Shown piece by piece: positions 22,568-36,568 of a stretch of DNA of 64,000 nucleotides (positions are counted from its first letter, which is position 1; every line of letters starts with the position of its first letter). Made by a program: the position numbers and the translations under genes. Location: the NCBI GenBank assembly GCA_963824885.1, contig CAWGQN010000001.1:143482-207481 (forward strand), read 5' to 3'. Under the pieces are notes generated by a model. That model saw only the letters and a list, made by a program, of their open reading frames with translations. It was not told the DNA's origin and did not search any database. The DNA is from an uncultured Actinomycetota bacterium (lineage in GTDB: Bacteria > Actinomycetota > Actinomycetes > Actinomycetales > Microbacteriaceae).

Positions 22568-23914
22568 TTAGACCCGTCGTCGTCGAGCCCTCACGATCAA
22601 AATAAAACCGACCGCAGAAACGAGGGCGGCTATCGCAACGATTCCGAATATTTCCGCACCGGTCGATGCCAAGATATTCTGCGGGTCCGGGTTGGCCGGT
22701 ACCGATTGCGGCGTCGTTGTCGGTGGCACTTGCGGTGCCGCGGAAGGAGTTGGCGTTGGAGCAGGGCTCGGTGGGTTCTCCTCGGGTGTTGACGGGTTGG
22801 GGGTGTCCTTGTGCGATGGTGGGACCGGGGTTTCCTTTTCAGGGACGTCGGTACCCACCCCCGTGCCTCCGGTCGTGTTTTCGATTTCTCGCTTCACTTT
22901 TTTCTCTTGTTGATCGCCGGGAGTCGAATACGTAAACGTGTTCTCGTAGTCGATTCGAGGCTGCGATTCGGTGATCGTTGCGTTAATTGACGCGGTAATT
23001 GATTCGTAGGCGTCAATACTCTTCGGAACCTCGAACGTCACCTTTGTCTTGTCGCACGAAGCAACTTTTACCCTCCCGTCCGGCATCGCCGGGTCGTAAC
23101 CGGCGCCCAAATTCTTTTGATAATAGTGATAACTGGCGCTTGCGCAATCAAAGGCCATCCCACTGCCGCCGGGCAACTCGTCGGTGATGACGATCGGACC
23201 GGGTTGCTCGGTGTCCGTCACGGGAAGAGCCAGGCTCCACTCAATCGCCCGTTTCGAATCGGTTTCTCCCTCTTTTTTCGGCGACGCCCAGTACCCCCAT
23301 TTCATTGCGGGCCGGGTCTTATTGGGGGTGGATGGCTCCGATTGAGACGGCCCGCTCGAAGGATTACTATCTCCAATCGGCACCACGTGCCCATTGATAC
23401 TCTTCGTGACTTGTTTCTTCTCGTCGAGCGGTTGTTCCTCGACGCGACGAACAGAGAAATATCCGTCGCCGTGAACGTTCAGCGGATGGTCGGTCACGTA
23501 ATCGGTCAGAGTGAATGTTGCGGTCTTGTCATGCCACGTGCCCGTTGCAATTGCGCGACCGCCGCCGCCCTTTGGCGCCCCCGCGACTTGTTCTTTCAAG
23601 GTAATCGGAACGATGTCGGCGCTTTCCAGACCGTCCGGAAGAACGAGGGTAAACGTGTCGCCCGGTTGAGAGTGATCGGGAACCGCCCACGTGAATTTCA
23701 GTTCCGTCACCGAACCGTTGGGGCCCATTGCCGTCGTGGCTGGGAAACTCGTGATTGCCCCGTCGATTGTTGCCGCCGTGGCGGATTGAGGGCGAACGAT
23801 TGCGCCCGCCGATGCTAGAGAGACGGCTCCCACCGAAAGCGCCGCCATCAACGCCATCGACCGTTTCAAATGATCGGGACGTCGATTGTTTTTGCCCACG
23901 CCACTGTCGCGCAT
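22568..23914 (-). CDS. LAxTG-anchored MSCRAMM/collagen-binding-like surface adhesin (B1)
   Basis: RBS GAAGGAG before the MRDSG start and a signal peptide ...ALMAALSVGAVSLASAGA. The N-terminal Ig-like adhesin region has FTWAVPDHSQPGDTFTLVLP, followed by a Cna-A-like IEWSLALPV...ITDELP block and a Pro/Thr-rich stalk. The C-terminus is LASTG, then a hydrophobic helix and RARRRRV. Confidence 0.85.
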   Translation of the reverse strand: MRDSGVGKNNRRPDHLKRSMALMAALSVGAVSLASAGAIVRPQSATAATIDGAITSFPATTAMGPNGSVTELKFTWAVPDHSQPGDTFTLVLPDGLESADIVPITLKEQVAGAPKGGGGRAIATGTWHDKTATFTLTDYVTDHPLNVHGDGYFSVRRVEEQPLDEKKQVTKSINGHVVPIGDSNPSSGPSQSEPSTPNKTRPAMKWGYWASPKKEGETDSKRAIEWSLALPVTDTEQPGPIVITDELPGGSGMAFDCASASYHYYQKNLGAGYDPAMPDGRVKVASCDKTKVTFEVPKSIDAYESITASINATITESQPRIDYENTFTYSTPGDQQEKKVKREIENTTGGTGVGTDVPEKETPVPPSHKDTPNPSTPEENPPSPAPTPTPSAAPQVPPTTTPQSVPANPDPQNILASTGAEIFGIVAIAALVSAVGFILIVRARRRRV

Positions 23915-24082
23915 TGTGCTCCTTCTCATTCTGACTACCGTGTTCATCGAACGTGAACATCGTTCCGGTCGGATAGAGAAAGAGTCATCGCGGTCGTGAC
24001 GCAATAGGGCTTGTTTTCACCCTGTGCCGGTTAAAGAATCGCCCTCGAGGACCACAGTGTGACGCGCTTTAGAGGGTAAATA

Positions 24083-24122
24083 GGCCGGGCGGCACCATCA
24101 TCCCGAATGGTGCCGCCCGGCC
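24083..24122 (-). terminator. perfect 16-bp stem hairpin downstream of adhesin B2
   Basis: ggccgggcggcaccat / atggtgccgcccggcc with an 8-nt loop catcccga, 16 nt after the B2 stop. The same hairpin sequence recurs at 29871 and partly at 31035. Confidence 0.65.
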
Positions 24123-24137
24123 TCCAGCAGGAGCGCG

Positions 24138-25244
24138 TTAGACGCGGCGCCTGCGGGCCATGACCACCAGAATCAATCCGGCGGCAGCAACGAGTGCCGC
24201 GAGCCCAATGATGCCAATTACCTCAGCCCCGGTTGGTGCGAGCGCGGGAGTGGGAGGCTCGGCACTCGGAACGCCTGCGGGAACGTCGGCGGGAACGTCC
24301 GCGGGAACGACCGACGGGGTGTCGGACGACGCGGGAGTCGTTGTCTCTGGCGTCGTCGTAGCCGGCTGCTCGGGTGCGGCAGGTGGCGCGGTCGCGACCG
24401 TCGTCGGAACACGAGGAGCTTCCGGCGTCGGAGGCGCCACGGGAGTGGGCGTTGACTCAGACGGTGGCACGGGAACCGGTGTCGGTTCCGGGCACGGCTT
24501 CGCAACCGGGACGGGTACTGGTTCCGGGCACGGCTTCGCAACCGGGACCGGAGCGGGCTCGGGACGCGGCTCCGTCACGACGGGAACCGGTGCTGGTTCC
24601 GGGCACGGTTTCGCAACCGGGACGGGTGCTGGTTCCGGGCACGGCTTCGCAACCGGGGCCGGAGCGGGCTTCGGGCACGGAAAGGCCGGCCGAATCGGCG
24701 TCAGGCCCGCTCCTGAGAGTGGCGAGCCATACGTGTGCGTGCTCTCAATGAGAACCGGTGAATTTCCCGCGGTGAACTGATTCGGCGTGTACGTGACCTG
24801 CGAACCGCTATCGGTTCCTTCGCTCACGCGACACGTGGACCCGGTGGGAACACGCGTGGCTCCCGAGCCACCCGGAACGACCGGGACTCGGAGGACGCCG
24901 CCCGGCAATTCCGGGGTACACGACAATCGTGCGACGTAGCCGACGGGAAGAGTATCTGACGCCGTGCCGACAATCTGATCGCGGAATTCCACGGGCGCAA
25001 AGCTGGGACTCGACGAATCGTTGGTGACGACCGGCTTTTCGCCATTCGTGGCCGTCGACGAATTGGCTGAATGTGCGCTTGTCGCCGAATCCGCCGTCGT
25101 CTCAGCGGATGCCGACTGAACGGTTGCGAAAGCACCAATCGCTACGATTGACAAAGAGCCAATCGCAAGCGCCGCCTTCGGCATGACGGACCGTCTCGAA
25201 CGGTTGGGATTTCGATCGGTTTTTTCCACGCCGAATTTGCGCAT
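24138..25244 (-). CDS. LAxTG-anchored surface protein with one two-Cys domain and a Cys/Pro-rich repeat stalk (B2)
   Basis: RBS GGAGGA and a signal peptide ending SASA. One domain is LSCTPELPGG...GSTCRVSEG, followed by five KPCPEPAPVPVA-type repeats. The C-terminus is LAPTG, then a TM helix and ARRRRV. Confidence 0.85.
   Translation of the reverse strand: MRKFGVEKTDRNPNRSRRSVMPKAALAIGSLSIVAIGAFATVQSASAETTADSATSAHSANSSTATNGEKPVVTNDSSSPSFAPVEFRDQIVGTASDTLPVGYVARLSCTPELPGGVLRVPVVPGGSGATRVPTGSTCRVSEGTDSGSQVTYTPNQFTAGNSPVLIESTHTYGSPLSGAGLTPIRPAFPCPKPAPAPVAKPCPEPAPVPVAKPCPEPAPVPVVTEPRPEPAPVPVAKPCPEPVPVPVAKPCPEPTPVPVPPSESTPTPVAPPTPEAPRVPTTVATAPPAAPEQPATTTPETTTPASSDTPSVVPADVPADVPAGVPSAEPPTPALAPTGAEVIGIIGLAALVAAAGLILVVMARRRRV
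24484..24690. repeat. tandem 36-bp (12-codon) in-frame repeats
   Basis: The unit ggttccgggcacggcttcgcaaccgggacgggtact is repeated at 24484, 24520, 24595 and 24631, with diverged units between and after them. On the minus strand they encode KPCPEPAPVPVA. Confidence 0.9.
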
Positions 25245-25457
25245 GGGTATCCTCCACGGGTAGGGGGGTTAACGTGCTCAGGGATTTAAGCGACGTTCGG
25301 GTGATAACGAGGACGATTGTGCCAATCAATGACGCAAATGCAATGAGAACCTACCGGTGGCCTTTCGTGCCGACGAGCGCGCGAATACACCCGCGCAGAG
25401 AGCTCTCGTCCGCGCGTGGTCGCGGCGTGCCGGGACGTGACACGCGCCTCGTTCCCT

Positions 25458-25485
25458 GCGAATCCGGCGCAAAGGCCGGATTCGC
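25458..25485 (-). terminator. 11-bp stem hairpin downstream of the giant repeat gene
   Basis: gcgaatccggc / gccggattcgc with loop gcaaag, about 140 nt after the B3 stop. There is no clear U-tract, so terminator function is uncertain. Confidence 0.35.
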
Positions 25486-25624
25486 GGCACCAATTTCTGC
25501 TCGAGGCTCGAGACAGCGTGACCAAAGACACGCTTTGCATGAGCGCAAAATAATTGAAATAGGTCCCAGTTAATTTCACCCTCAAGTGGAGGATTTTTTC
25601 ACCCTCTACGCGTGATTGTTCATC

Positions 25625-28600
25625 CTAACGGGCCACGGTGGTGATGACTTTCACGCTCGTTTCCGGCAAGAAAACGAAGCTCTGGCTCGGCTCATACGAG
25701 ACGCTTGCCCCAGCCGGTGGGTTGAGCGCTTGAAGCGTGCACGTCGAACCGAGCGAAAAGAAGCCCGTGCTCAGCGCCGCGGAATTTGGCCCAAGCGCCA
25801 GTGTTTCCGACGCTACTGGACCACCGCTCGGCGCGGTGCACGTGAGACTCACGAGGGAGCTCGTTGACGGCGGCAACGGCGGCATCCCCTCGACCACGAC
25901 ATTGGTGACAAATATTTTTCGCGGCGCGTAGTAGTTCGCCACCGCTACGGTCACGGGAGAATCGCCCGCAAGAAACGTCGCGGGACTATACGAGACCGTA
26001 GCGTTTGGCGGCGGAGTCGATTCCACGACACCGCACATTGACCCACTCGTAACCTGTTGCACAACGGGCGTTCCATCGGCTGGCAACTCCACGGGGTAGG
26101 TCACTGCGGGACCGCCAGCTCCCGGCGTGCACGTCACCATCACCACGTAACCGCTTGGCGCTGGTTCGGGGGGAAATCCTTGGACAGCGGTGTGCAATTT
26201 TACCGGCGTTGTCGGAATCACCGTTGGATACGTGTTCACAATGGTCACGTGTGCGCACTGCGGACCGACCGTAAACGTCGCACCGGGTTCATACGTCACC
26301 GTCGCACCCGCGGGCGTCGGTTCATTGACGGTGCACGACGACCCCACCGCAATCCCGAGCGTCGAGACGACCGTCCCGTCCGCGGGAAGCGTCAACACCA
26401 CCGGATCAGTCGGCGTCCCCCCGGGAGGAGTACACGTCAACGTCGCACCATACGAATCAGGAACCGGAACCGGCGGCGTTCCCACGACAGACTTATGAAC
26501 ATTCACACTCACCGTCGACGGAACAAACGAGTTGAAAACCGTAACATGAGTGCCCTGCGGGCCCGCGACAAACGTCGCACCGGGATCATACGTGACCATC
26601 GCACCCGATGGCGGGTTCGGCTCGTCAATCGTGCACGACGACCCCACCGCAATCCCGAGCGTCGAGACCAAGGAACCATCAGCCGGAAGCGTCAACGCAA
26701 CTGGACCAGTCGGCGTCCCCCCGGGAGGAGTACACGTTAACGTCGCACCATACGAATCAGGAACCGGAACCGGCGGCGTTCCCACGACAGACTTATGAAC
26801 ATTCACACTCACCGTGGGCGTAACAAACGTGTTCACAATCGTTACATTCGCACCCTGCGGACCCGCGACAAACGTCGCACCGGGTTCATACGTCACCGTC
26901 GCACCCGCGGGCGGCATCGGTTCATCAACGATACAGAACGACCCCACCGCAATCCCCGGCGTCGAGACCACGGAACCATCAGCCGGAAGAGTCACGACGA
27001 CCGGTTTACCGGGAACACCCACCGGAGGAGTACACGTCAACGTCGCACCATACGATTCAGGAATCGGAACCGGCGGCGTCCCGACGACCGACTTATGGAG
27101 AGTCGCAGAAACCGTCGTGGGCGCATAAGAGTTCAGAATCGTCGCGTTCGCACCCTGTGGACCCACCGTAAACGTCGCACCGGGTTGATACGTGACGGTC
27201 GCACCCGCAGGCGGCATGGGTTCCTCAACGGTGCACGATGACCCCACCGCAATCCCCGGCGTCGAGACCACGGAACCATCAGCCGGAAGAGTCAACGCTA
27301 CCGGCTGACCAGGAACACCGAGCGGAGGAGTACACGTCAACGTCGCACCATACGATTCAGGAACCGGAACCGGCGGCGTCCCGTTAATCGCTTTATTAAT
27401 ATTCACGCTCACTGTCGGCGGCCCAAAGGTATTCGTTACCGTCACTATCGCACCGTGCGGACCAACGGTGAAGGTCGCGGAAGGGGCATACGTCACCGTC
27501 GCACCCGCGGGCGGAGAAGGCTCGTCAACCGTGCACGACGACCCCACGACAATCCCGGGTGTCGAGACGACAGTCCCATCCACCGGAAGACTCACCACCA
27601 CGGACTCGCCCGGAGTCCCACCGGGAGGAGTACACGTCACCGTCACCGCAAACGAATCGGGTACCGGAGTCGGGGGCATCCCCACGACCGCTTTGTGCGT
27701 GCCGACCGTCGCCGTCGCCGGCGCAAACGTATTCACAACCGTCACATCCGCACCCTGCGGACCCGCAACAAAAGTCGCACCGGGCTCATACGTCACGGTC
27801 GCACCCGCCGGAGGGTTCGGCTCGTCAATCGTGCACGACGACCCCACCGCAATTCCCGGCGTCGACACAACGGTCCCGTCCGCCGGAAGACTCACCACCA
27901 CCGGCTGACCAGGAATACCCACGGGAGGAGCACACGTCAACGTCACCGCATACGAATCAGGAACCGGAGTCGGGGGCGTCCCCACGACCGCCTTGTGACT
28001 GCTCACCGTGACTGTCGCGGGTCCAAAGTAGTTCTTGACAATCACATCGATTCCGTTCGTGCCCACGACAAAAGTCGCCCCGGGATCGAACGTCACAATT
28101 GCACCCGCCGGAGGGTTCGGCTCGTCAATCGTGCACGACGACCCCACGGCAATCCCCGCGGTTGACACGACTGTTCCATCTGCGGGAAGAGCCACCATGA
28201 CCGGGTCACTCGGAGTCCCGCCGGGAGGAGTACACGTCACGGTCGCCGCATACGAATCGGGTACCGGTGTCGGGGGTGTGCCCTCGACGGTTTTGTGCAT
28301 GCCTATCGTCGCCGTTGCCGGCGGAAAGGTATTTACTATCGTCACATCTGCGCCCTGCGGACCCGCATCAAAAGTCGCACCGGGCTCATACGTGACCGTC
28401 GCACCCGCCGGAGGAGAAGACTCCTCTATTGTGCACGACGAACCCACCTCAATCGAGGGCGTCGACACGACGGTCCCATCGGCCGGAAGCACGACTATCA
28501 CCGGCTCAGTCGGAATACCGATCGGAGGAGTACACGTCAACGTCGCCGCATACGAATCGGGTGCGGGAGTCGGGGGTGTCCCCACGACGGCCTTGTGGAT

Positions 28601-29740
28601 ACCGACGGTGACCGTGTCAGGTCCGAAGGAGTTGACGACCGTCGCGTCCGCACCCTGCGGTCCTACCGTAAACGTCGCACCGGGTTCATACGTCACGGTC
28701 GCGCCAACCGGAGGAGCAGGCTCGTCGAGCGTGCACGACGACCCCACCGCAATTCCCGGCGTCGAAACCACGGAACCATCCGCGGGAAGCGTCACGGCAA
28801 CGGGATCACCCGGAATCCCACCGGGGGGCGTACACGTCACAGTCGCAGCGTATGACTGAGGCGCTGGAACCGAAGGACTACCGACAATCGCTTTATGGAT
28901 ATTCACGCTCACCGTCGCCGGAACGAACGTATTCGTTACCGTGACAATGACGCCGTGCGGACCGACCGTAAAGGTTGCCCCAGGGGCATACGTCACGGTC
29001 GCATCGGCGGGAGGAGAGGGTTCGTCGGCGGTACACGACGACCCCACCGCAATTCCCTGCGTCGAGACCACGGAACCATCCGCGGGAAGAGTCAGGGCAA
29101 CGGGGTCACCTGGAACCCCACCCGGAGGAGTACACGTTAGCGTCGCACCGTACATTTCGGGCATGGGAACGGTCGGCGTTCCCACGACGACCTTATGCAC
29201 TCCCACGCTCACGGTCGTGACCACGACAATCGTCAACGAAACATCGCCGTTGATCAGATACGTTGTTGTCCCATTGGCGACGGGGTCATTGAGCGTGACG
29301 CCAAAAAAACCGGTCCCCGTGATATTGAGCGGTTGTGTCGTTACAAAGCTTGTCAACGTGCACGTCGCGGTTTGGCCAACCCACGCACAATTCGCCATCG
29401 CCGAGCCGTCGGCTGCCAAGAGATCGAACGCCTCTCCCCCGGTCGACGTCAGCTCGGTCGGCAGCGCGATGGTGAACGTGTCGCCCTCCGGAGTGTTATC
29501 CGGAACGCCCCACACAAAGTCGAGCTTGAAAGAGCTGCCGTTCGTCACCGATGGCGCCGTCGTGGACACGCTTGTGATTGCACCGGGTACGTCCGCCGCC
29601 CTCGCCGCGTGCGTTGGCACGAGTGCACCAATCGAGACAAGCGACAGTGTTGTCAACAACAACGCCGAAAGCGATGAAAGCCACCGCCTCATCCAGCCTT
29701 TTTCGACGGAAACGATCACATTACCGGCGGCGTTTTCCAT
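25625..29740 (-). CDS. giant secreted repeat protein (B3): adhesin-type N-domain plus 12 tandem two-Cys ~100-aa domains, with no C-terminal anchor
   Basis: Uninterrupted frame of 1371 codons from MENAAG (RBS GAGGGGGGA). The signal peptide is MRRWLSSLSALLLTTLSLVSIGALVPTHAARA. The N-domain FVWGVPDNTPEGDTFTIALP is homologous to B1. It is followed by 12 units of ...SYxATLTCTPPxGxPGxPVxxxLPADGxVVSTPGIAVGSSCTxxEPxPPAGATVTYEPGATF.... The protein ends ...VKVITTVAR with no LAxTG motif or TM helix. Confidence 0.9.
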   Translation of the reverse strand: MENAAGNVIVSVEKGWMRRWLSSLSALLLTTLSLVSIGALVPTHAARAADVPGAITSVSTTAPSVTNGSSFKLDFVWGVPDNTPEGDTFTIALPTELTSTGGEAFDLLAADGSAMANCAWVGQTATCTLTSFVTTQPLNITGTGFFGVTLNDPVANGTTTYLINGDVSLTIVVVTTVSVGVHKVVVGTPTVPMPEMYGATLTCTPPGGVPGDPVALTLPADGSVVSTQGIAVGSSCTADEPSPPADATVTYAPGATFTVGPHGVIVTVTNTFVPATVSVNIHKAIVGSPSVPAPQSYAATVTCTPPGGIPGDPVAVTLPADGSVVSTPGIAVGSSCTLDEPAPPVGATVTYEPGATFTVGPQGADATVVNSFGPDTVTVGIHKAVVGTPPTPAPDSYAATLTCTPPIGIPTEPVIVVLPADGTVVSTPSIEVGSSCTIEESSPPAGATVTYEPGATFDAGPQGADVTIVNTFPPATATIGMHKTVEGTPPTPVPDSYAATVTCTPPGGTPSDPVMVALPADGTVVSTAGIAVGSSCTIDEPNPPAGAIVTFDPGATFVVGTNGIDVIVKNYFGPATVTVSSHKAVVGTPPTPVPDSYAVTLTCAPPVGIPGQPVVVSLPADGTVVSTPGIAVGSSCTIDEPNPPAGATVTYEPGATFVAGPQGADVTVVNTFAPATATVGTHKAVVGMPPTPVPDSFAVTVTCTPPGGTPGESVVVSLPVDGTVVSTPGIVVGSSCTVDEPSPPAGATVTYAPSATFTVGPHGAIVTVTNTFGPPTVSVNINKAINGTPPVPVPESYGATLTCTPPLGVPGQPVALTLPADGSVVSTPGIAVGSSCTVEEPMPPAGATVTYQPGATFTVGPQGANATILNSYAPTTVSATLHKSVVGTPPVPIPESYGATLTCTPPVGVPGKPVVVTLPADGSVVSTPGIAVGSFCIVDEPMPPAGATVTYEPGATFVAGPQGANVTIVNTFVTPTVSVNVHKSVVGTPPVPVPDSYGATLTCTPPGGTPTGPVALTLPADGSLVSTLGIAVGSSCTIDEPNPPSGAMVTYDPGATFVAGPQGTHVTVFNSFVPSTVSVNVHKSVVGTPPVPVPDSYGATLTCTPPGGTPTDPVVLTLPADGTVVSTLGIAVGSSCTVNEPTPAGATVTYEPGATFTVGPQCAHVTIVNTYPTVIPTTPVKLHTAVQGFPPEPAPSGYVVMVTCTPGAGGPAVTYPVELPADGTPVVQQVTSGSMCGVVESTPPPNATVSYSPATFLAGDSPVTVAVANYYAPRKIFVTNVVVEGMPPLPPSTSSLVSLTCTAPSGGPVASETLALGPNSAALSTGFFSLGSTCTLQALNPPAGASVSYEPSQSFVFLPETSVKVITTVAR
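25628..29218. repeat. about 300-bp tandem coding repeats (12 units, the central ones nearly identical)
   Basis: Identical strings recur at exact 300-bp spacing. For example, accccaccgcaatcccgagcgtcgagac occurs at 26341 and 26641, and accccaccgcaatccccggcgtcgagaccacggaaccatcagccggaagagtca at 26941 and 27241. Confidence 0.9.
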
Positions 29741-29870
29741 TGTGTCCCCCCTCAGGACGAGGCCCTCGTACACACGTTGGACGCGGTACCTCAATCGAGA
29801 GACGACCAAACAACCAAATCGTGACGCCACGACGCAAAGAAGAATTTTACGAGCGGAGCGCTGCGCGTGA

Positions 29871-29912
29871 AAACCGGGCGGCACCATAATCCCGAATGGT
29901 GCCGCCCGGTTT
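29871..29912 (-). terminator. intrinsic terminator hairpin downstream of adhesin B4
   Basis: aaaccgggcggcaccat / atggtgccgcccggttt, a 17-bp stem with 8-nt loop aatcccga and flanking A/T tracts (TTTT after the stem on the minus strand). It lies 23 nt after the B4 stop. Confidence 0.75.
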
Positions 29913-29934
29913 GACCTTGTGCGTCAGAAACGAG

Positions 29935-30858
29935 TTATGCGTGGCGCCTTCGTCGCATCAATACGACAACGATTCCTAGGCCAACCGCAAGTGCACCCAA
30001 TGGAATCAATTGGCTGCCCGCATCACCGGACGCTGCTAGTTCAGGGGCCGCGGGAGCCTGCTCTACCGGTGCAGGTGCAGGTGCAGGTGCAGGTGCAGGT
30101 GCAGGTGCAGGTGCAGGTGCAGGCGAGGTATACGTATTTGTCACAACGACAAGCGTGTCTACGCCGAATTGCACGGTAACCGTGGGGCTCGGGGAGTATG
30201 TAACGGCGGCTCCCGCCGGCGGGCTGGTCTCGTTGACCGTGCACGATGAATCACTAAGAATTCCCGGAATCACCGTAGCAGGAGCCCCAGGAATAAGGGG
30301 CGGCACCGGAAAACTGATAGGCGCTTCCCCTGGGAGCGCGCACGACAGTGTCACCGCGTAGTCAGCAGGCGCCGGAGCCGGAGCCGTCCCCACGACAACC
30401 TTTTGTATGCCGATAGTCGTTGGCTCCCTGAAGGTGTTGGTCACAGTAACTTGAAAATCTGTGGTAGCCGTAAAGGTGGGGTGGTCAATAGTGACGGTCG
30501 CTCCCACTGGCGGATTTGGTTCGGTTGCCGTACACGACGACCCATCGACGAACCCGGGCACGGTCACCAATCCCCCTGTGGCCGAAAACACGAATGGAAC
30601 CGGCGTGCCTGGCGCGCCGCCCGGGGGAGTGCACGTCACAAGCACGGTAAAATTCGCCCCCGCAGGAGGTGGGCCGACAACTGTTTTCAACACGCCAATC
30701 GTGACGGGGGCCGCCTGCGCAAAAGCCGACTCGTGAACCCCGAGAATTCCTAACGGAACGAGCAACATGCCGGCGAGCGACAATGCGCCGAGTGACGCCA
30801 GAACTCGCCTCACGCGCGGCGCGGGCAATGCAGATTGGCCTTTACTAGTGTTTCGCAT
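29935..30858 (-). CDS. surface protein (B4) with two two-Cys domains, a (PA)9 stalk and a deviant LAASG sorting signal
   Basis: Start MRNTSKG is preceded by CCTGAGGGGGGAC, and the signal peptide ends AFAQA. The domains read ...TVLVTCTPPGG...GSSCTATEP... and ...AVTLSCALPGE...DSSCTVNETSPPAGAAVTY. The C-terminus has PAPAPAPAPAPAPAPAPAPV, then LAASG, a TM helix and RRRRHA. Confidence 0.85.
   Translation of the reverse strand: MRNTSKGQSALPAPRVRRVLASLGALSLAGMLLVPLGILGVHESAFAQAAPVTIGVLKTVVGPPPAGANFTVLVTCTPPGGAPGTPVPFVFSATGGLVTVPGFVDGSSCTATEPNPPVGATVTIDHPTFTATTDFQVTVTNTFREPTTIGIQKVVVGTAPAPAPADYAVTLSCALPGEAPISFPVPPLIPGAPATVIPGILSDSSCTVNETSPPAGAAVTYSPSPTVTVQFGVDTLVVVTNTYTSPAPAPAPAPAPAPAPAPAPVEQAPAAPELAASGDAGSQLIPLGALAVGLGIVVVLMRRRRHA
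30068..30121. repeat. perfect hexanucleotide microsatellite (GGTGCA)9
   Basis: Nine uninterrupted ggtgca units, in frame, encoding (Pro-Ala)9 on the minus strand. Confidence 0.95.
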
Positions 30859-30911
30859 CGTTCGTCCCCCCTCAGGGCAAAAAGCACTCACAATCATGTG
30901 GGCCACTCATC

Positions 30912-30939
30912 ACTTTAACATGAAAGAGCCAAAAATCAA
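30912..30939 (-). promoter_or_regulatory. candidate housekeeping-type promoter of B4 (TTGATT-N16-TAAAGT)
   Basis: On the minus strand the -35 TTGATT is at 30939-30934 and the -10 TAAAGT at 30917-30912. The same hexamer positions are conserved upstream of B5. Not experimentally supported. Confidence 0.4.
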
Positions 30940-31078
30940 CACATCCTGACACGGCACGGCAAATCGCGCGTTGACCCATTGCGTTGTTCCGTAGATTGTC
31001 AATCTACACGTCGTGGTTATGGTCGGCAACGCACCCCGAATGGTGCCGCCCGGTTTGACCTTGTACTTCACGGGCGCG

Positions 31079-32686
31079 CTATACGCGGCGCCTGCTGGTC
31101 ATGACCAACAGGACGATCCCCGTGCCGAAAAGAAACGCACCGAAAACACTGTGCGACGTGAGCGCATCACCGGCGGAGGCAAGAGCGAGTGCGGCAGGCA
31201 CGGTAGCGGGCCCTTCGAAAATGTTCGTCGCCTCAATTGTGACCGCCTGGTCAATCATGAAGTTCCCCTCGCCCGGATCACTCGTGATGACGACACCGGT
31301 ATCGAATGTGGTGTTCGAAATGATCGATTGGCTCGCGCCGTTGGTCACCGTCTCCGTCGCAAAGCAGTGGGAACCGCCGGGAAGCAAAAGGGGGTTCCCC
31401 GTCGGATCGAGCGCGGTTGCCTTTTCACCCGCACGAACGGTCAAGGTGTGGTGATAGAGCGGCAATCGTATCGTTCCTCCCGACGCTGACTCCGGCACGT
31501 CAATTTCGCACGTCACATCGAACGAGAACGAGGCTCCCTGCACCTCGGGCGAATTCGACTCGGCGCCCGACACGGTCTTTGCGACACTGACTGTGCCGGC
31601 CGAATAGTGATTGACGAAATCAATTTGGTTGCCGGTGCCCGCGATGATCGTCACCGGACCTGAGTTCGTCGGGGGAATACTCGGCCCAACCTCGCCAAAT
31701 AGCGGCGCCTCGAAAGCCGTGCACATGGAACCCACTGGCATTCCGCCGATCGGGTCGGAATGAATGATGGTGTCGACGAGCCCCGTACCTGCGATGCCGA
31801 CCGGGAAGTCCGTGAGCCCTGGAACTGGATCTCCAGTCGGTGACACGCATGTCAGAAAAAAATGAAACGTGTGGTGTGCGAAGGCTTGAGCGCCCAGCCC
31901 CGCGAGAGTCTTGGTGATGGTCATAGTAGAAAATTCATTTGTAACCGTCACGTCGGCGCCATTGGGTCCGACGATGAACGTCGCACTGGGGCTGTACGTC
32001 ACGGTCGCGCCCGCTGGTGGCGTGGTCTCATTGATCGTGCACGACGAACCAACGAAGATTCCCGGAGTTGACACGACGGTTCCGTCCGCAGGAAGTGACA
32101 CTTGGACCGCCGGAAGCGCGGTGCCCCCGGCCGGAGTGCAAATCAGCGTTGCATCGAATGTCGCCGGCACGGGCGATGTCGGTGTGGTGTTGACGAGCGC
32201 TTTTTGGGCCCTCACGGCGACTTGCGCGGGAAAGGTGTTGGTGATGTGCACGACGGCACCGTTCGACCCAACATTGAACGCGACCCCCGCGGTGATCGGA
32301 CTCCCATTCAAGTCGTACGTCACGACCGCACCCGCGGGCGGATTGGTCTCGACGATTGTGCACGATGAGTTAGCGGGGACACCACCCGGCACAAAAAAAA
32401 TCGTGCCGTCAGCGAGGACCGTCACCGATGTTACGGTCGGCGAACCACCGGGAGGAGTACACGTTAGAGTCGCCGTGTAGCTGGTTGGGGCCGGCGAGAG
32501 AGGCGTACCGCTGACTATTTTCTGTACTGCAAACGCAGGCCCCTGCGCAAAAGCCGACTCGTGAACCCCGAGAATTCCTAACGGAACGAGCAACAAGCCG
32601 GCGAGCGACAAGGCGCCGAGTGACGCCAGAAGCCGCCTAACGCGCGCCGCCCGCAAGGCAAATTGGCCTCTATTAGTGATACGCAT
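31079..32686 (-). CDS. surface protein (B5) with four two-Cys domains and a deviant LASAG sorting signal
   Basis: Start MRITNRG is preceded by CCTGAGGGGGGGAC. The signal peptide is near-identical to that of B4. Domains include TATLTCTPPGG...NSSCTIVETNPPAGAVVTY, ATLICTPAGG...GSSCTINETTPPAGATVTY, FFLTCVSP...GSMCTAFE and FDVTCEID...GSHCFATE. The C-terminus is LALASAGD, then a TM helix and SRRRV. Confidence 0.85.
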   Translation of the reverse strand: MRITNRGQFALRAARVRRLLASLGALSLAGLLLVPLGILGVHESAFAQGPAFAVQKIVSGTPLSPAPTSYTATLTCTPPGGSPTVTSVTVLADGTIFFVPGGVPANSSCTIVETNPPAGAVVTYDLNGSPITAGVAFNVGSNGAVVHITNTFPAQVAVRAQKALVNTTPTSPVPATFDATLICTPAGGTALPAVQVSLPADGTVVSTPGIFVGSSCTINETTPPAGATVTYSPSATFIVGPNGADVTVTNEFSTMTITKTLAGLGAQAFAHHTFHFFLTCVSPTGDPVPGLTDFPVGIAGTGLVDTIIHSDPIGGMPVGSMCTAFEAPLFGEVGPSIPPTNSGPVTIIAGTGNQIDFVNHYSAGTVSVAKTVSGAESNSPEVQGASFSFDVTCEIDVPESASGGTIRLPLYHHTLTVRAGEKATALDPTGNPLLLPGGSHCFATETVTNGASQSIISNTTFDTGVVITSDPGEGNFMIDQAVTIEATNIFEGPATVPAALALASAGDALTSHSVFGAFLFGTGIVLLVMTSRRRV

Positions 32687-32740
32687 CGTTCGTCCCCCCC
32701 TCAGGGCAAAAAGCACTCACAATCATGTGGGCCACTCATT

Positions 32741-32824: not shown

Positions 32825-33667
32825 CTACGAGTCGTCCGCTGCGCGCGGTCCCACGGGTACTCCGCCGACGGAATTGCCGGTCGTTGGGTTCGCCGTCGTG
32901 GCGGCGTCGGAATTGGCCGGACACATCATCAGCCTCGAAAGCTCCGACCCCACGTTATTGGCTTCCACGAGCATGTGCGCGCACCGCTCGCACGATTTCA
33001 GGTGTTTTTCCACGCGCACGACGTCGCGTTTACCGAGTCCGTTTCGAACATACGAACCCAAATACTCGAGGGCCCAGTGACACTCCGTACCGCCCGGTGC
33101 CGACGCGAGGTGCGCTCGAATCCACGCTTGCCTCAACCCCTCGCGCGCCCGATAATTGAGCGCGGCAACCGCGTTCGGTTTGATGCCCAAGAGTGGCGCG
33201 ACCTTTTGCGGAGAGAGACTCTCCACCTCGCTGTACCACAGGGCTTGTTGCCATCGAGTGGGCAACAAGCGAAATGCGCGAATCGCGAACTCTCGATCAA
33301 TCGCAGCAGATCTCGTCTCGTCTGATAAGTGCGGATCGGGAACCTCCTCGATCGCGCCAATCGACGTGTCGTGCTTCGCGCGCGCCCACGCAATGGCCGT
33401 GTTTCTGACGGTCGTGAATAAGTACGGGCGAAATGCGAGCGTCGGACCACCACCATTTCGCATCGAGTGGAAGATTTTCGCAAACGCCTCGGAGACAAGA
33501 TCATCGGAATCAAACGACGTCGTATATGATCGTGCAACCGCGGTCGCGGCGCGCGCGTGACGGTGCCACAGCTCGCCAAATGCGCCACTGTCACCCCCGC
33601 GAGTCAGATCGATTAATTCGGTGTCACTGCGTATCACCGGAGGGCCGGTGGGCGCATCAGGGGCCAT
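32825..33667 (-). CDS. ECF-type sigma-70 family sigma factor with fused C-terminal zinc-finger anti-sigma (ZAS, zf-HC2) domain
   Basis: Region 2 reads DLVSEAFAKIF...RPYLFTTVRNTAIAW and region 4 reads LPTRWQQALWYSEVESLSPQKVAPLLGIKPNAVAALNYRAREGLRQ. These are followed by CHWALEYLG...VEKHLKSCERCAHMLVEA (H-x3-C-x2-C). No TM helix follows. RBS AAGGA. Confidence 0.85.
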   Translation of the reverse strand: MAPDAPTGPPVIRSDTELIDLTRGGDSGAFGELWHRHARAATAVARSYTTSFDSDDLVSEAFAKIFHSMRNGGGPTLAFRPYLFTTVRNTAIAWARAKHDTSIGAIEEVPDPHLSDETRSAAIDREFAIRAFRLLPTRWQQALWYSEVESLSPQKVAPLLGIKPNAVAALNYRAREGLRQAWIRAHLASAPGGTECHWALEYLGSYVRNGLGKRDVVRVEKHLKSCERCAHMLVEANNVGSELSRLMMCPANSDAATTANPTTGNSVGGVPVGPRAADDS

Positions 33668-33800: not shown

Positions 33801-34625
33801 TCACGACCTCAGCGACGCTCCATGAAACACTCGATCCAACAGCGCGAAGAGTGGCGCGTCATACGTTGTCAGCCTGGCGCGCGTACTGACCTCGTTGTGA
33901 ACGCCGTCGCCACCAACCGGACCGGTGTGATTCACGTCGAAGTAACTCTGGACGCCCTCGGCCCAATACTCGCGCATTGCTGACCCGGCGTACGTATTCC
34001 TCCATCGACCAGCGGCGAGCGCCGCATTCCACGCGCTTCGCAGTTCAGGCATGAATGTCGCGTCATCGTATTGCAACGCCATTTCCATGAGCGTGTGGCC
34101 GAACTCGTGAACAAACGCGTTCTCACCGTTCAGGTTGTCCATGAGATTGGCCTCTGTTCCCACCGAAATCGGAAGGCTATCAGTCGCTCCCATTCCGCCC
34201 CAATACCTGTCATCGAGAGAAGTACCAAAAATCGCGTTCACTTCGGGAATATTGCTCATCCGCTCGCCGCGCGCCGTGATGACTACTCGAATATTGTGGC
34301 GGTTCAGCGAGGGAACCGGCCACGACGGATACGTCCATAGCAAGGTTCCCATCTCGTTCTTGGCGCGTATCAACGTCGCGTCGTCAACGCTGCGCGAACC
34401 AAGGACGGGTACGCCCCACGCGTCAATATATTTGCCGTAAAAGTTCGTGTCGAGTCGATATTTATCGGCAATATCCCGCGGTACGCCAGAAACAACGGAC
34501 TGGGCCGAGGTTTCAGACGTCGCGCTCGCGCTTATCGATGCGGGCACCGCAACCAGCGCACTCACCGAAAGAAAAGCTGTCAAGGCGAAAAGAGGTCGTC
34601 GATTTATAGCTGACATAAGAGTCAT
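33801..34625 (-). CDS. Tat-signal secreted zinc metalloprotease (HExxH ... ExxAE), paralog 1
   Basis: INRRPLFAL twin-Arg-like signal ending SASA. FVHEFGHTLME zinc motif, with Y and EYWAEGVQSYF about 40-47 residues downstream. The gluzincin / M34-like family assignment is tentative. Confidence 0.75.
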   Translation of the reverse strand: MTLMSAINRRPLFALTAFLSVSALVAVPASISASATSETSAQSVVSGVPRDIADKYRLDTNFYGKYIDAWGVPVLGSRSVDDATLIRAKNEMGTLLWTYPSWPVPSLNRHNIRVVITARGERMSNIPEVNAIFGTSLDDRYWGGMGATDSLPISVGTEANLMDNLNGENAFVHEFGHTLMEMALQYDDATFMPELRSAWNAALAAGRWRNTYAGSAMREYWAEGVQSYFDVNHTGPVGGDGVHNEVSTRARLTTYDAPLFALLDRVFHGASLRS

Positions 34626-34725
34626 CCAATCAATGCACTAGGTTCTTCGGGTCAACCGTGCAACGAGCACCCCATACTGTCTCACACATTCGAGAAAAAA
34701 GGAATACCCAATCCCCCCAAGAAGG

Positions 34726-35586
34726 TCACGTCCTCAGCGACGCTCCACGAAACACTCGATTAAGAAGCGCGAAGAGTGGCGGATCATACTCTTTCAGTCT
34801 GTCCCGCGTGTAAACGTCGTTATTAATGCCGTTTCCGCCAACCGGGCCGGGCCTACCGACGTTGAAATACGTCTGGACGCCTTCGGCCCAATACTCTTTC
34901 ATGGCCGAACCAGCGTACGTGTTATTCCATCGCCCGGTCGCATTCGCCGAATCCCACGCATTCTGCAATTCAGGAGAGAAGTTCGTATCAATGTGTGACA
35001 ACGACATGTCCATGAGGGTGTGGCCGAATTCGTGGACAAACACGTTCTCGTTGTCATAATTGTCGATAAGGTTCGCCTCTGTACCAACGGAGAGCGGAAC
35101 GCGATCCGTTGCTCCCATTCCACCCCAATACGCCTCGTCAAACGTTCTGCCACCACCCCACCGCGTGCGATCATTGAGAACCGAACCGTACTCGGCGTAT
35201 ACCTCGGGAATGTCGCTCATGTGCTCGCCTCGCGCCGCAAGTACGACTCGAACGTTGCGCCGGCTCAACTCGGGAACCGGCCACCAGGGGTACGTCCACA
35301 AGAGCGTTCCCATTTGAGTCCTGGCCCGCACGAGCGTCGCATCGTCGAGCCTGTTAGAGCCGAGAATGGGCACGCCCCACGCGTTAATGTACTTGCCATA
35401 CCAGTTCGTGTCGAGTCCGTATTTATCGGCAATTTCCTGCGGGACACGCGAAACGGAAGCCTTTTCCGAGAGCGCCGGATTCGCACTCGCGCTGAGCGCG
35501 GGGGGAACTGCGGCCAGAGCACCAACGGCACCTCCCGCGGCCAAGAAAACAAACGAGCGTCGATTCACTGTTGACATGACAGTCAT
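34726..35586 (-). CDS. Tat-signal secreted zinc metalloprotease (HExxH ... ExxAE), paralog 2
   Basis: VNRRSFVFLAAGG twin-Arg signal ending SASA, FVHEFGHTLMDM and KEYWAEGVQTYF. Colinear with paralog 1 over its full length. Confidence 0.75.
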   Translation of the reverse strand: MTVMSTVNRRSFVFLAAGGAVGALAAVPPALSASANPALSEKASVSRVPQEIADKYGLDTNWYGKYINAWGVPILGSNRLDDATLVRARTQMGTLLWTYPWWPVPELSRRNVRVVLAARGEHMSDIPEVYAEYGSVLNDRTRWGGGRTFDEAYWGGMGATDRVPLSVGTEANLIDNYDNENVFVHEFGHTLMDMSLSHIDTNFSPELQNAWDSANATGRWNNTYAGSAMKEYWAEGVQTYFNVGRPGPVGGNGINNDVYTRDRLKEYDPPLFALLNRVFRGASLRT

Positions 35587-35668
35587 CCAATCCGTGCACT
35601 AGGTTCTTCGGGTTAACCGTGCAACAAGCGCCCTTCTCTCACACCGGGGGAAGAAAAGCGGGATGATG

Positions 35669-35741
35669 TGACCCCAGCGGGATTCGAACCCGCGTTACCG
35701 CCGTGAGAGGGCGATGTCCTGGGCCGCTAAACGATGGGGCC
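35669..35741 (-). tRNA. tRNA-Glu (anticodon CUC)
   Basis: GGCCCCATCGTTTAGCGGCCCAGGACATCGCCCTCTCACGGCGGTAACGCGGGTTCGAATCCCGCTGGGGTCA folds as a cloverleaf by hand. The 7-bp acceptor stem has one G-U pair, the anticodon loop is CUCUCAC and the T-loop is TTCGAAT. CCA is not encoded. Confidence 0.92.
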
Positions 35742-35843
35742 GTGCTTGCAGCCCCACGAGTATCCCACGATCATCGGGAACAACCAAACTCGGCCATGCC
35801 GAGGGACCTTGCGCGTCCGCTCGGGCGGGTATTAGCTGACACC

Positions 35844-36482
35844 ATGCGACTAACAAAAATGCAACACGCGACCCTTATCCTCGAGGATTCCGGATCGAAA
35901 CTGATTGTCGACCCCGGAACGTTCTCGGCGCCGCTCGACGACGTCGGTCAAACGGTCGCCGTCGTGTTAACTCACGAACACGTCGATCACTGGACGCCCG
36001 AGCAATTGGGGCGCATTTCGAACGAAAATCCGTCAGTGAGAATTTTCGGACCCGCGGGCGTCGTGTCCGCCGCGGCTGGATTCGACGTGAGTGAGGTAAG
36101 CGACGGCGATACCGTCACCGCGGGACCGTTCTCGCTCAGGTTTTTCGGATCGCAACACGCCCTGATTCACTCGTCAATCCCGGTTGTCGACAATGTTGGT
36201 GTGTTGGTCAATGACGCACTCTATTATCCGGGCGATTCGTTTACGATTCCCTCGGGAGTCGACGTAGACACCCTCGCGGTTCCCTCGGGTGCACCGTGGC
36301 TAAAAATCGGCGATGTGATTGATTTCGTCCTCGCGGTTGGGCCCCGGCGCAGTTTTTCGACCCACGAAATGGTGCTGTCTGCTGCGGGAAAGCACTTGGC
36401 GAATTCCCGAATCGAGTGGGCAACGAAGCAAGGCGGTGGAGAATTTATCTCTCTCGAACCCAACGAAACGCTCGAAATCTAG
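35844..36482 (+). CDS. MBL-fold metallo-hydrolase
   Basis: MRLTKMQHATLILEDSGSKLIVDPG...VVLTHEHVDH motif (HxHxDH); 212 aa. Confidence 0.8.
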   Translation: MRLTKMQHATLILEDSGSKLIVDPGTFSAPLDDVGQTVAVVLTHEHVDHWTPEQLGRISNENPSVRIFGPAGVVSAAAGFDVSEVSDGDTVTAGPFSLRFFGSQHALIHSSIPVVDNVGVLVNDALYYPGDSFTIPSGVDVDTLAVPSGAPWLKIGDVIDFVLAVGPRRSFSTHEMVLSAAGKHLANSRIEWATKQGGGEFISLEPNETLEI

Positions 36483-36496
36483 AAGCGCACGTGTTG

Positions 36497-36568
36497 CTGG
36501 GGTACCTGGACTCGAACCAAGAACAACTGAACCAGAATCAGCCGTGTTGCCAATTACACCATACCCCA
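36497..36568 (-). tRNA. tRNA-Gln (anticodon CUG)
   Basis: TGGGGTATGGTGTAATTGGCAACACGGCTGATTCTGGTTCAGTTGTTCTTGGTTCGAGTCCAGGTACCCCAG has a cloverleaf with anticodon loop UUCUGGU and T-loop TTCGAGT. Confidence 0.92.

Follow-up and report, generated by a model that had tools for sequence, protein, structure and literature searches.

Two putative secreted metallopeptidases of an uncultured actinobacterium belong to a very large unannotated sister family of the Firmicute PPEPs with predicted specificity for proline- and hydroxyproline-rich proteins

The 64,000-nucleotide stretch of DNA analysed here (assembly GCA_963824885.1, contig CAWGQN010000001.1, positions 143,482 to 207,481 of the forward strand; hereafter the window) comes from an uncultured actinobacterium and carries two adjacent paralogous genes, P1 (33801-34625, minus strand, 274 amino acids) and P2 (34726-35586, minus strand, 286 amino acids), whose products are predicted to be secreted zinc metallopeptidases. 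Their family, a sister of the Firmicute PPEPs, is very large and unannotated, and neither Pfam nor NCBIfam has a model for it. On balance we consider it somewhat more likely than not that P1 and P2 are secreted, PPEP-related endopeptidases of the M34 type that act on extended polypeptides rich in proline or hydroxyproline (Pro/Hyp), with exogenous targets slightly favoured. The most valuable result lies at the level of the family, whose genomic contexts and domain fusions predict a specificity for Pro/Hyp-rich glycoproteins.

The two paralogs are 63% identical and share one arrangement of catalytic motifs. In P2, a signal peptide of about 35 residues (~1-35) is followed by HEFGH at residues 185-189 (codons 35020..35034, minus strand), by Tyr224 and by EYWAEG at 231-236 (EYWAE codons 34882..34896, minus strand), which includes Glu231 and Glu235. 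The corresponding positions read from the sequence of P1 are HEFGH at 173-177 (34095..34109, minus strand), Tyr212 and EYWAEG at 219-224 (EYWAE codons 33957..33971, minus strand), with Glu219 and Glu223. The tyrosine precedes the first Glu of EYWAE by exactly seven residues in both proteins, and 42 residues separate that Glu from the second His of HEFGH. HEFGH, which aligns with HETAH of PPEP-1, would supply two zinc-binding histidines and the catalytic Glu, and the first Glu of EYWAE the third zinc ligand. In an alignment of 57 family sequences both histidines, the Glu of HExxH and the E, Y, A and E of EYWAE are invariant, as are Pro127, Gly156 and Glu170, while the tyrosine is at least 90% conserved. 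Because these motif positions are fixed throughout the alignment, the active site is genuine and a chance HExxH is ruled out; the motif layout on which a preliminary description of this DNA had built is thus present in both paralogs and conserved in the 57 homologs. Residue numbers in the family alignment (A1) and in the structural model described below equal full-length P2 numbering minus 1. Two database entries, P0002 (P1 itself with a later start) and L001 (the window itself, 100% identical), do not count as independent evidence. The start codon of P2 is annotated differently in the database.

The sole large difference between the paralogs is a 12-residue insertion in P2, TRWGGGRTFDEA (residues 141-152; 35131..35166, minus strand), which duplicates the adjoining R-x-W-G-G motif. 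It sits in the loop preceding the edge strand, the region equivalent to the S-loop of PPEPs, and the confidence of the structural model is low at 141-150.

How are P1 and P2 related to peptidases of known fold? Against the Pfam model ATLF (PF07737), P2 scores 21.1 bits with a gathering threshold of 27.4 and P1 has no match; P2 also gives a sub-threshold match to M90 (PF06167, 17.2 bits, cutoff 26.2), and no NCBIfam model matches either protein. The ATLF gathering score is passed by a minority of family members, such as P0159 with 33.8 bits. When the single P2 sequence was compared with the PDB, only noise and no PPEP was returned. Searched against the PDB, the family profile matched lethal factor at E 0.0023 and PPEP-3 at E 0.072, and the positions of HExxH, Tyr and ExxAE coincided; in the lethal factor alignment Y-x6-EFFAE falls in register with Tyr224/Glu231 of P2 and Tyr212/Glu219 of P1. 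For a comparison of alignments, the PPEP-1 sequence was checked against the PDB, PPEP homologs were collected and 28 were aligned (A2). Comparison of A1 with A2 by hhalign gave a probability of 95.2% (E 2.6e-8, 161 columns) over residues 83-280 of P2 and 50-220 of PPEP-1, the catalytic domain, and aligned Tyr224/Glu231 of P2 with Y178/E185 of PPEP-1. A model computed by AlphaFold2 from the family alignment reaches a mean confidence (pLDDT) of 86.9, with low values confined to the signal peptide and to the insertion of P2, and places HEFGH within a predicted helix spanning residues 181-198. In a Foldseek search of this model against the PDB the top 28 matches are all PPEP-3, PPEP-2 or PPEP-1 (E 1e-5 to 4e-3, target-normalised TM score 0.54-0.66, identity 12-16%), followed by lethal factor and Certhrax.

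Profile search, alignment comparison and structural search, three independent tests, therefore agree on the M34, lethal factor or PPEP-type resemblance that the preliminary description had pointed to. The classification and structure prediction that it had proposed as a check gave a PPEP/lethal-factor fold with the zinc-ligand motifs aligned, the Pfam and NCBIfam thresholds not being reached. The assignment of P1 and P2 as M34-type gluzincins, with predicted metal binding, is supported by this model and these alignments, and PPEPs are their closest characterised relatives. A PPEP is defined in the literature by BLAST similarity to PPEP-1 or PPEP-2 at 1e-25 or below together with a Firmicute distribution (PMC8610288). 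Because P1 and P2 fall outside this definition, they are not PPEPs in the strict sense, as the low identity (12-16%) also indicates, and the most fitting place for them is a separate sister family that has no name as yet. From the other side, a search of 5.8 billion proteins with PPEP-1 returned only ATLF-annotated, Firmicute-type proteins and no member of the P1/P2 family. In the S-loop the equivalence of the tryptophan is not robust: hhalign sets Trp154 of P2 (Trp142 of P1) opposite Trp103 of PPEP-1, but two alignments disagree in this loop, the tryptophan is not conserved across the wider family, and the P2 insertion lies here. The aligned segment ahead of HExxH is shorter in P1/P2 than in PPEP-1.

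The family is large and widely distributed. A scan of GTDB species representatives recovered at least 518 relatives, mostly from Bacteroidota, Planctomycetota and Verrucomicrobiota, together with Sorangium and a few actinomycetes, and an exhaustive search with a hidden Markov model (HMM) of the family yielded 6,011 clusters at 50% identity with E <= 1e-3, or 1,466 with E <= 1e-30. Some members carry two to five catalytic copies in one polypeptide (P0157 and P0158, for example, have up to 4-5). The nearest relatives outside the pair's own lineage are 50-60% identical and come from Micromonospora, Actinoplanes, Salinispora, Streptomyces, Lentzea, Saccharothrix and metagenomes. All 79 matches found with a word index are labelled 'hypothetical' or named after other domains, and a look-up of the clusters gave no names for the family. 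In the literature we found no description of the family, of bacterial fusions between VHL domains and peptidases, or of proteases degrading hydroxyproline-rich glycoproteins (HRGPs) within polysaccharide utilisation loci.

What do such enzymes cut? Open reading frames (ORFs) were called in 82 loci, the neighbours of the family gene were clustered, and the recurrent ones were checked with Pfam and NCBIfam. The most frequent partner is a peptidase of the dipeptidyl peptidase IV (DPP-IV) type, family S9B, found in 14 of the 82 loci; one neighbour cluster of this kind spans 11 loci, and in 7 of these the gene lies immediately upstream, on the strand of the family gene. Glycoside hydrolase family 127 (GH127), the beta-L-arabinofuranosidase family, follows in 12 loci, SusC in 9, a weakly Svx-like DUF6055 metallopeptidase in 8, and an Xaa-Pro aminopeptidase or dipeptidase (M24B) in 7. 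Three further partners occur in 4 loci each: the trans-4-hydroxy-L-proline dehydratase HypD (1256 bits, cutoff 1100), delta-1-pyrroline-5-carboxylate (P5C) dehydrogenase (757.6 bits, cutoff 613.6) and GH27. With GH27 and SusC left uncounted, at least one of the six Pro/Hyp partners is present in 23 loci and at least two in 15, and the loci with such partners include those of Planctomycetota, Verrucomicrobiota and Armatimonadota. Several Bacteroidota loci (L010, L037, L042, L059, L075, L083 and others) combine HypD, P5C dehydrogenase, Xaa-Pro aminopeptidase, DPP-IV, GH127, GH27, DUF6055 and SusC. Such loci look like utilisation loci for hydroxyproline-rich glycoproteins. GH127 enzymes of the HypBA1 type are described as stripping beta-L-arabinofuranose from Hyp-linked glycans (PMC10850190), and according to the HypD literature the proteases that open up the Hyp held in glycoproteins remain to be identified (PMC6219649). 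Among actinobacteria, the homolog of Actinoplanes sp. NBC_00393 closes an apparent operon of a LacI regulator, an ABC sugar transporter and GH43 (L085, 1236-7780); it starts 18 nt past the GH43 gene, and two CBM6 proteins are encoded after it. In Catellatospora, a homolog fused to a ricin lectin adjoins a GH53 gene.

Domain fusions point in the same direction. Among 81 long family members, 21 contain a VHL-beta domain (best E 1.6e-27), 4 a cyclophilin-type peptidyl-prolyl isomerase and 2 a ricin lectin. Ricin-lectin fusions occur in Catellatospora and Dactylosporangium; PKD and Sel1 domains are further fused domains among the family representatives P0157-P0303. When the fused VHL-like domains are combined into a profile, it matches human VHL with E 4e-19, and their consensus keeps Trp88, Tyr98, Ser111 (as Thr), His115 and Trp117 of the human protein. 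In the structures of VHL bound to HIF, these five residues form the hydroxyproline pocket. The comparison rests on a profile of family members, and a phmmer search of the single protein P0073 against the PDB gave no match. The preliminary description had guessed at Pro-rich substrates from the genes next to P1 and P2, and this guess gains independent support from the neighbourhoods and domain fusions of distant relatives.

Taken together, these observations suggest the following mechanism. P1 and P2 would be zinc endopeptidases that are transcribed independently of each other, secreted, and about 25 kDa in size once the signal peptide is removed. By homology, zinc would be held by His185, His189 and Glu231 (P2 numbering), Glu186 would serve as the general base and Tyr224 would stabilise the oxyanion. 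The substrate would lie extended along the edge strand (about residues 165-169), beneath the loop that differs between the paralogs by the 12-residue insertion. As the neighbourhoods and fusions of its relatives suggest, the family would cut extended Pro- or Hyp-rich polypeptides, often glycosylated, with plant extensins, arabinogalactan proteins or collagen-like material as likely substrates, and cleavage may feed the catabolism of Pro/Hyp peptides. In the present organism the pair would cut Pro-rich segments outside the cell, those of exogenous proteins being slightly favoured over the stalks of neighbouring sortase-anchored proteins. For P1 and P2 themselves we infer catalysis, Pro/Hyp specificity, export by the twin-arginine translocation (Tat) pathway and the physiological substrate.

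Several points weigh against this account. The specificity of every family member is predicted from sequence and context alone. GH127 also covers activities unrelated to HRGPs, and the NCBIfam model closest to the GH127 neighbours is that of an aceric acid hydrolase, matched below its cutoff. The neighbour frequencies are raw counts given without a background control of random genes. Moreover, the loci linked to Pro/Hyp come mainly from relatives that are 31-38% identical to P1/P2, a distance over which functional drift is possible; most actinobacterial homologs (50-56% identical) are solitary and have uninformative neighbours. P1 and P2 carry neither a lectin nor a VHL module, and the top-150 list is enriched for VHL fusions, the query profile containing VHL columns. 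Finally, no gene for a glycosidase, a peptide transporter or Pro/Hyp catabolism lies close to P1 and P2 in the window.

The window around the pair supplies a different set of candidates. Downstream of P1 lies a gene for a sigma factor of the extracytoplasmic function (ECF) type (32825-33667, minus strand), with sigma regions 2 and 4, a fused C-terminal zf-HC2 domain of the anti-sigma type and no membrane segment. It is followed by five genes for surface proteins built of DUF5979 and Big_8 domains, B5 to B1, all on the minus strand and together spanning 22568-32716. Four of these end in a sorting-type motif, a hydrophobic membrane segment and RRRR: B5 (31079-32716) with LASAG, B4 (29935-30906) with LAASG and a (PA)9 stalk, B2 (24138-25244) with LAPTG and KPCPEPAPVPVA repeats in its stalk, and B1 (22568-24004) with LASTG and the Pro/Thr stalk PSPAPTPTPS. 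The fifth, B3 (25625-29887, 1,420 amino acids), combines Big_8 with at least 11 DUF5979 repeats and has no sorting signal. LAASG and LASAG are non-canonical motifs in that they contain no Thr. The Pro-rich linkers named in the preliminary description, namely the KPCPEPAPVPVA repeats of B2, the (PA)9 of B4 and the Pro/Thr stalk of B1, are all present, and the Pro-rich sortase substrates lie 1.1-13 kb downstream of the proteases. Just above their anchors B1 and B2 carry Pro-Pro sites (PVPPS, NPPS, VPPT, APPT and EPPT); the stalk of B4 has no such site and B5 has no Pro-rich stalk.

Upstream of P2 lies a core block of gltX and tRNA genes, its boundary marked by tRNA-Glu(CUC) (35668..35741, minus strand), directly upstream of P2. 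An ORF for a hydrolase with the metallo-beta-lactamase (MBL) fold (35703-36482, plus strand) is placed divergently between this tRNA and tRNA-Gln (36496-36568, minus strand); the mechanical start of this ORF overlaps tRNA-Glu, and the true start probably lies later. Still further upstream are genes for a flavoprotein reductase, gltX, an Rv2993c-like hydrolase, a class IV aminotransferase, a leuB-type dehydrogenase (Iso_dh) and serA. Past B1 come TerC, a PP2C phosphatase and an aconitase-family (leuC-type) gene, and the remainder of the window is housekeeping. The proteases, the sigma gene and the five surface-protein genes thus form one co-oriented accessory block with housekeeping genes on both sides. 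The idea that this block might be a mobile island is not supported; no integrase was found, and a search for att-type repeats of tRNA-Glu gave chance 12-mers only. The GltX protein is about 70-72% identical to those of Leifsonia, Subtercola and Agreia, and by this measure the organism looks like a divergent, Microbacteriaceae-like actinobacterium.

A conserved block of about 50 nt precedes each protease gene (35587..35636 for P2 and 34626..34675 for P1, both minus strand) and recurs directly upstream of the ortholog in L084 (at about 1437-1486 of that locus), a contig of the related metagenome-assembled genome (MAG) GCA_023264945.1. The block, of the form TTGCAC-N17-TAGTGC-N9-ATG, is almost invariant across the three genes and contains the palindrome GGTTAACC; it probably serves as a promoter of the sigma-70-like kind, from which an mRNA with little or no leader would start, and/or as an operator. 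A terminator-like hairpin follows tRNA-Glu (35659-35676). The surface-protein genes have signals of another kind. B3, B4 and B5 have in common an upstream block and an CCTGAGGGGGG Shine-Dalgarno context that differ from the protease block, and a G+C-rich hairpin, GGGCGGCACCATTCGGG...GGTGCCGCCC, follows B5 (31035-31053, a degenerate copy without the second arm), B4 (29874-29909) and B2 (24085-24120). The 5' regions and signal peptides of B4 and B5 are nearly identical. An ECF-type promoter motif common to the upstream regions of the sigma, protease and adhesin genes was sought by eye and not found, and Rfam at a permissive threshold reported only the two tRNAs, and no riboswitch, between 22 and 37 kb. 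Each protease and adhesin gene has an upstream block of its own and the adhesin genes have their own terminators; the proteases and the adhesins are therefore separately transcribed, and no regulatory motif common to them was found.

In L084 the order is MBL hydrolase, a single protease and sigma factor, and the contig ends inside the sigma gene before any adhesin would be reached. The sigma factor there, which likewise follows the protease gene, is 81% identical to that of the window, and the protease coding DNA is about 77% identical. Because this related genome has one protease between MBL and sigma genes, the protease duplication is specific to the lineage of the window. A scan of metagenomes for further close relatives found none.

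Both proteins begin with the pattern M-T-x-M-S-x-x-N-R-R and continue as NRRPLFAL in P1 and NRRSFVFL in P2, followed by a hydrophobic stretch and SASA, and the RR is retained in close actinobacterial homologs in the family alignment. The Pfam TAT_signal model gives 11.4 bits for P2 (cutoff 22.7) and no match for P1, and the NCBIfam Tat models yield only a weak match to formate_TAT. Of the twin-arginine-type signals described earlier, the RR, the hydrophobic region and the AxA site hold, while the Tat models stay below threshold for P2 and are silent for P1; Tat-type export is accordingly a plausible call at the level of the motif.

Could the neighbouring surface proteins themselves be the substrates? 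The preliminary description had proposed that P1 and P2 are PPEP-like release proteases that cut the Pro-rich stalks of the sortase-anchored proteins beside them, shedding adhesins and detaching the cell. PPEPs are indeed homologous at the profile level and are the closest solved structures, the family-wide evidence favours Pro-rich substrates, and apart from the proteases and the sigma gene, surface proteins are the only theme of the co-oriented block. The Pro-Pro sites of B1 and B2 lie above the sorting signal, in the position of the PPEP-1 sites, and two enzymes with unlike loops above the cleft might each suit a different stalk sequence. However, only this genome shows proteases and adhesins side by side. 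In none of the 80 other loci, 8 actinobacterial ones included, does the family gene adjoin a sortase substrate or a homolog of B1-B5; homologs of the sigma factor and the MBL hydrolase are equally absent from them, and the one sortase-type protein noted lies about 7 kb away in Salinispora. The family is found mostly in diderm phyla without sortase-anchored adhesins, and what the related MAG conserves is the order MBL, protease, sigma, on a contig that stops short of any adhesin. Within the window, the proteases and adhesins occupy separate transcription units with the sigma gene between them and no common motif, a riboswitch like the one linking PPEP-1 with its substrates is absent, and Pro-Pro sites are missing from the B4 stalk, as is a Pro-rich stalk from B5. 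The proposed pairing of protease and neighbouring substrate is not borne out by these comparisons, and we regard adhesin shedding as rather unlikely.

A further possibility is that P1 and P2 are generic secreted metalloproteases without a proline preference, serving for example broad nutritional or competitive proteolysis, and that both the local adhesin context and the distant Pro/Hyp contexts are uninformative for these two genes. The M34-type fold is shared by lethal factor, an enzyme without Pro specificity; the position opposite the S-loop tryptophan of PPEPs is unconserved in the wider family; and most actinobacterial homologs stand alone among unrelated neighbours. Against this, the ties to Pro/Hyp-specific functions, through operons as well as fusions, recur in several phyla, and it is the PPEPs rather than lethal factor that give the best structural and profile matches; we consider a generic role unlikely, and slightly more so than shedding. 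The sigma factor offers another connection, since the adjacency of protease and sigma genes is the one feature conserved in the related MAG. A part for P1 and P2 in the pathway of this ECF sigma factor, such as the degradation of an extracytoplasmic anti-sigma or sensor component, is nevertheless very improbable. A zf-HC2 domain is part of the sigma protein itself, which lacks any segment in or beyond the membrane within range of a secreted protease; homologs of this sigma factor are absent from the other family loci, and the motifs upstream of the proteases are sigma-70-like and not ECF-like. For lack of any extracytoplasmic part in the sigma protein, a role as anti-sigma protease was rejected.

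We return to the reading of P1 and P2 as endopeptidases of Pro/Hyp-rich polypeptides and to what it would mean. PPEPs count as a small group, restricted to Firmicutes and unique in their specificity. They now gain a very large sister family, with thousands of clusters whose members are at present labelled 'hypothetical protein'. The neighbourhoods and fusions predict that this family comprises endopeptidases giving bacteria access to hydroxyproline-rich glycoproteins, a need raised as an open question in earlier work (PMC6219649). At the same time, the P1/P2 pair is a clean test case for PPEP-style adhesin shedding beyond the Firmicutes, and should shedding prove false, the annotation and the family definition would still be useful. 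The two ideas can be joined. The family as a whole would then be the missing endopeptidases that open Hyp/Pro-rich glycoproteins (extensins, arabinogalactan proteins, perhaps collagen) across Bacteroidota, Planctomycetota, Verrucomicrobiota and Actinomycetota, often with VHL-beta as a hydroxyproline reader, and the duplicated pair of the window would have been recruited, separately from the PPEPs of Firmicutes, to serve as a release switch acting on the cell's own adhesin stalks, with the paralogs matching different stalks. We judge this combined scenario decidedly improbable.

Comparison with known systems places the family more precisely. MtfA and the M90 peptidases, which are lethal-factor-like zincins, show weak similarity to P2 around HExxH, and 5 of 81 family members match them; they differ in being cytoplasmic and are absent from the Foldseek structural matches. 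The Pectobacterium virulence factor Svx (DUF6055) is, like P1/P2, a secreted bacterial metallopeptidase, but it is unrelated in fold and family, so that DUF6055 is a co-occurring partner and not a homolog. Svx cleaves extensins, and experiments have shown it to be specific for plant glycoproteins rich in hydroxyproline (PMC13164431). Lethal factor (ATLF-like) has the same succession of HExxH, about 40 residues and Tyr-x6-E-F/Y-F/W-A-E, whereas P1 and P2 are single-domain secreted enzymes without toxin delivery domains.

The closest comparison is with the PPEPs (MEROPS M34, EC 3.4.24.89), namely PPEP-1 (Zmp1) of C. difficile, PPEP-2 of Paenibacillus alvei and PPEP-3 of Geobacillus. An endogenous substrate is encoded beside the protease with PPEP-1 as with PPEP-2 and not with PPEP-3 or PPEP-4; the PPEP-1 sites are located in the substrate stalk right above the sorting signal, and a c-di-GMP riboswitch, which P1 and P2 do not have, couples PPEP-1 to its substrates. 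In PPEPs the S-loop residue Trp103 (PPEP-1) or Tyr113 (PPEP-3) closes over the P1 and P1' prolines of the substrate, and a diverting loop imposes a double-kinked conformation on the Pro-rich substrate. P1 and P2, in contrast, have a shorter or different S-loop region in which the Trp equivalent is not conserved across the family; they are about 45 residues longer, end in a C-terminal tail of their own (GPxGGDGVHN...YD), and have an RR-type signal where PPEPs have a Sec signal. Their family is spread widely beyond the Firmicutes, unlike the PPEPs, and Pro-Pro cleavage is for it a prediction. Both groups consist of small, secreted, single-domain zinc peptidases in which an N-terminal alpha/beta subdomain bears the edge strand, HExxH sits on a helix, and the C-terminal subdomain is helical and carries Tyr, then 7 residues, then ExxAE. 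A TDxPE motif ahead of the S-loop region is common to both, and the alignments equate the predicted third-ligand Glu of the P2 EYWAE with Glu185 of PPEP-1 and Glu735 of lethal factor.

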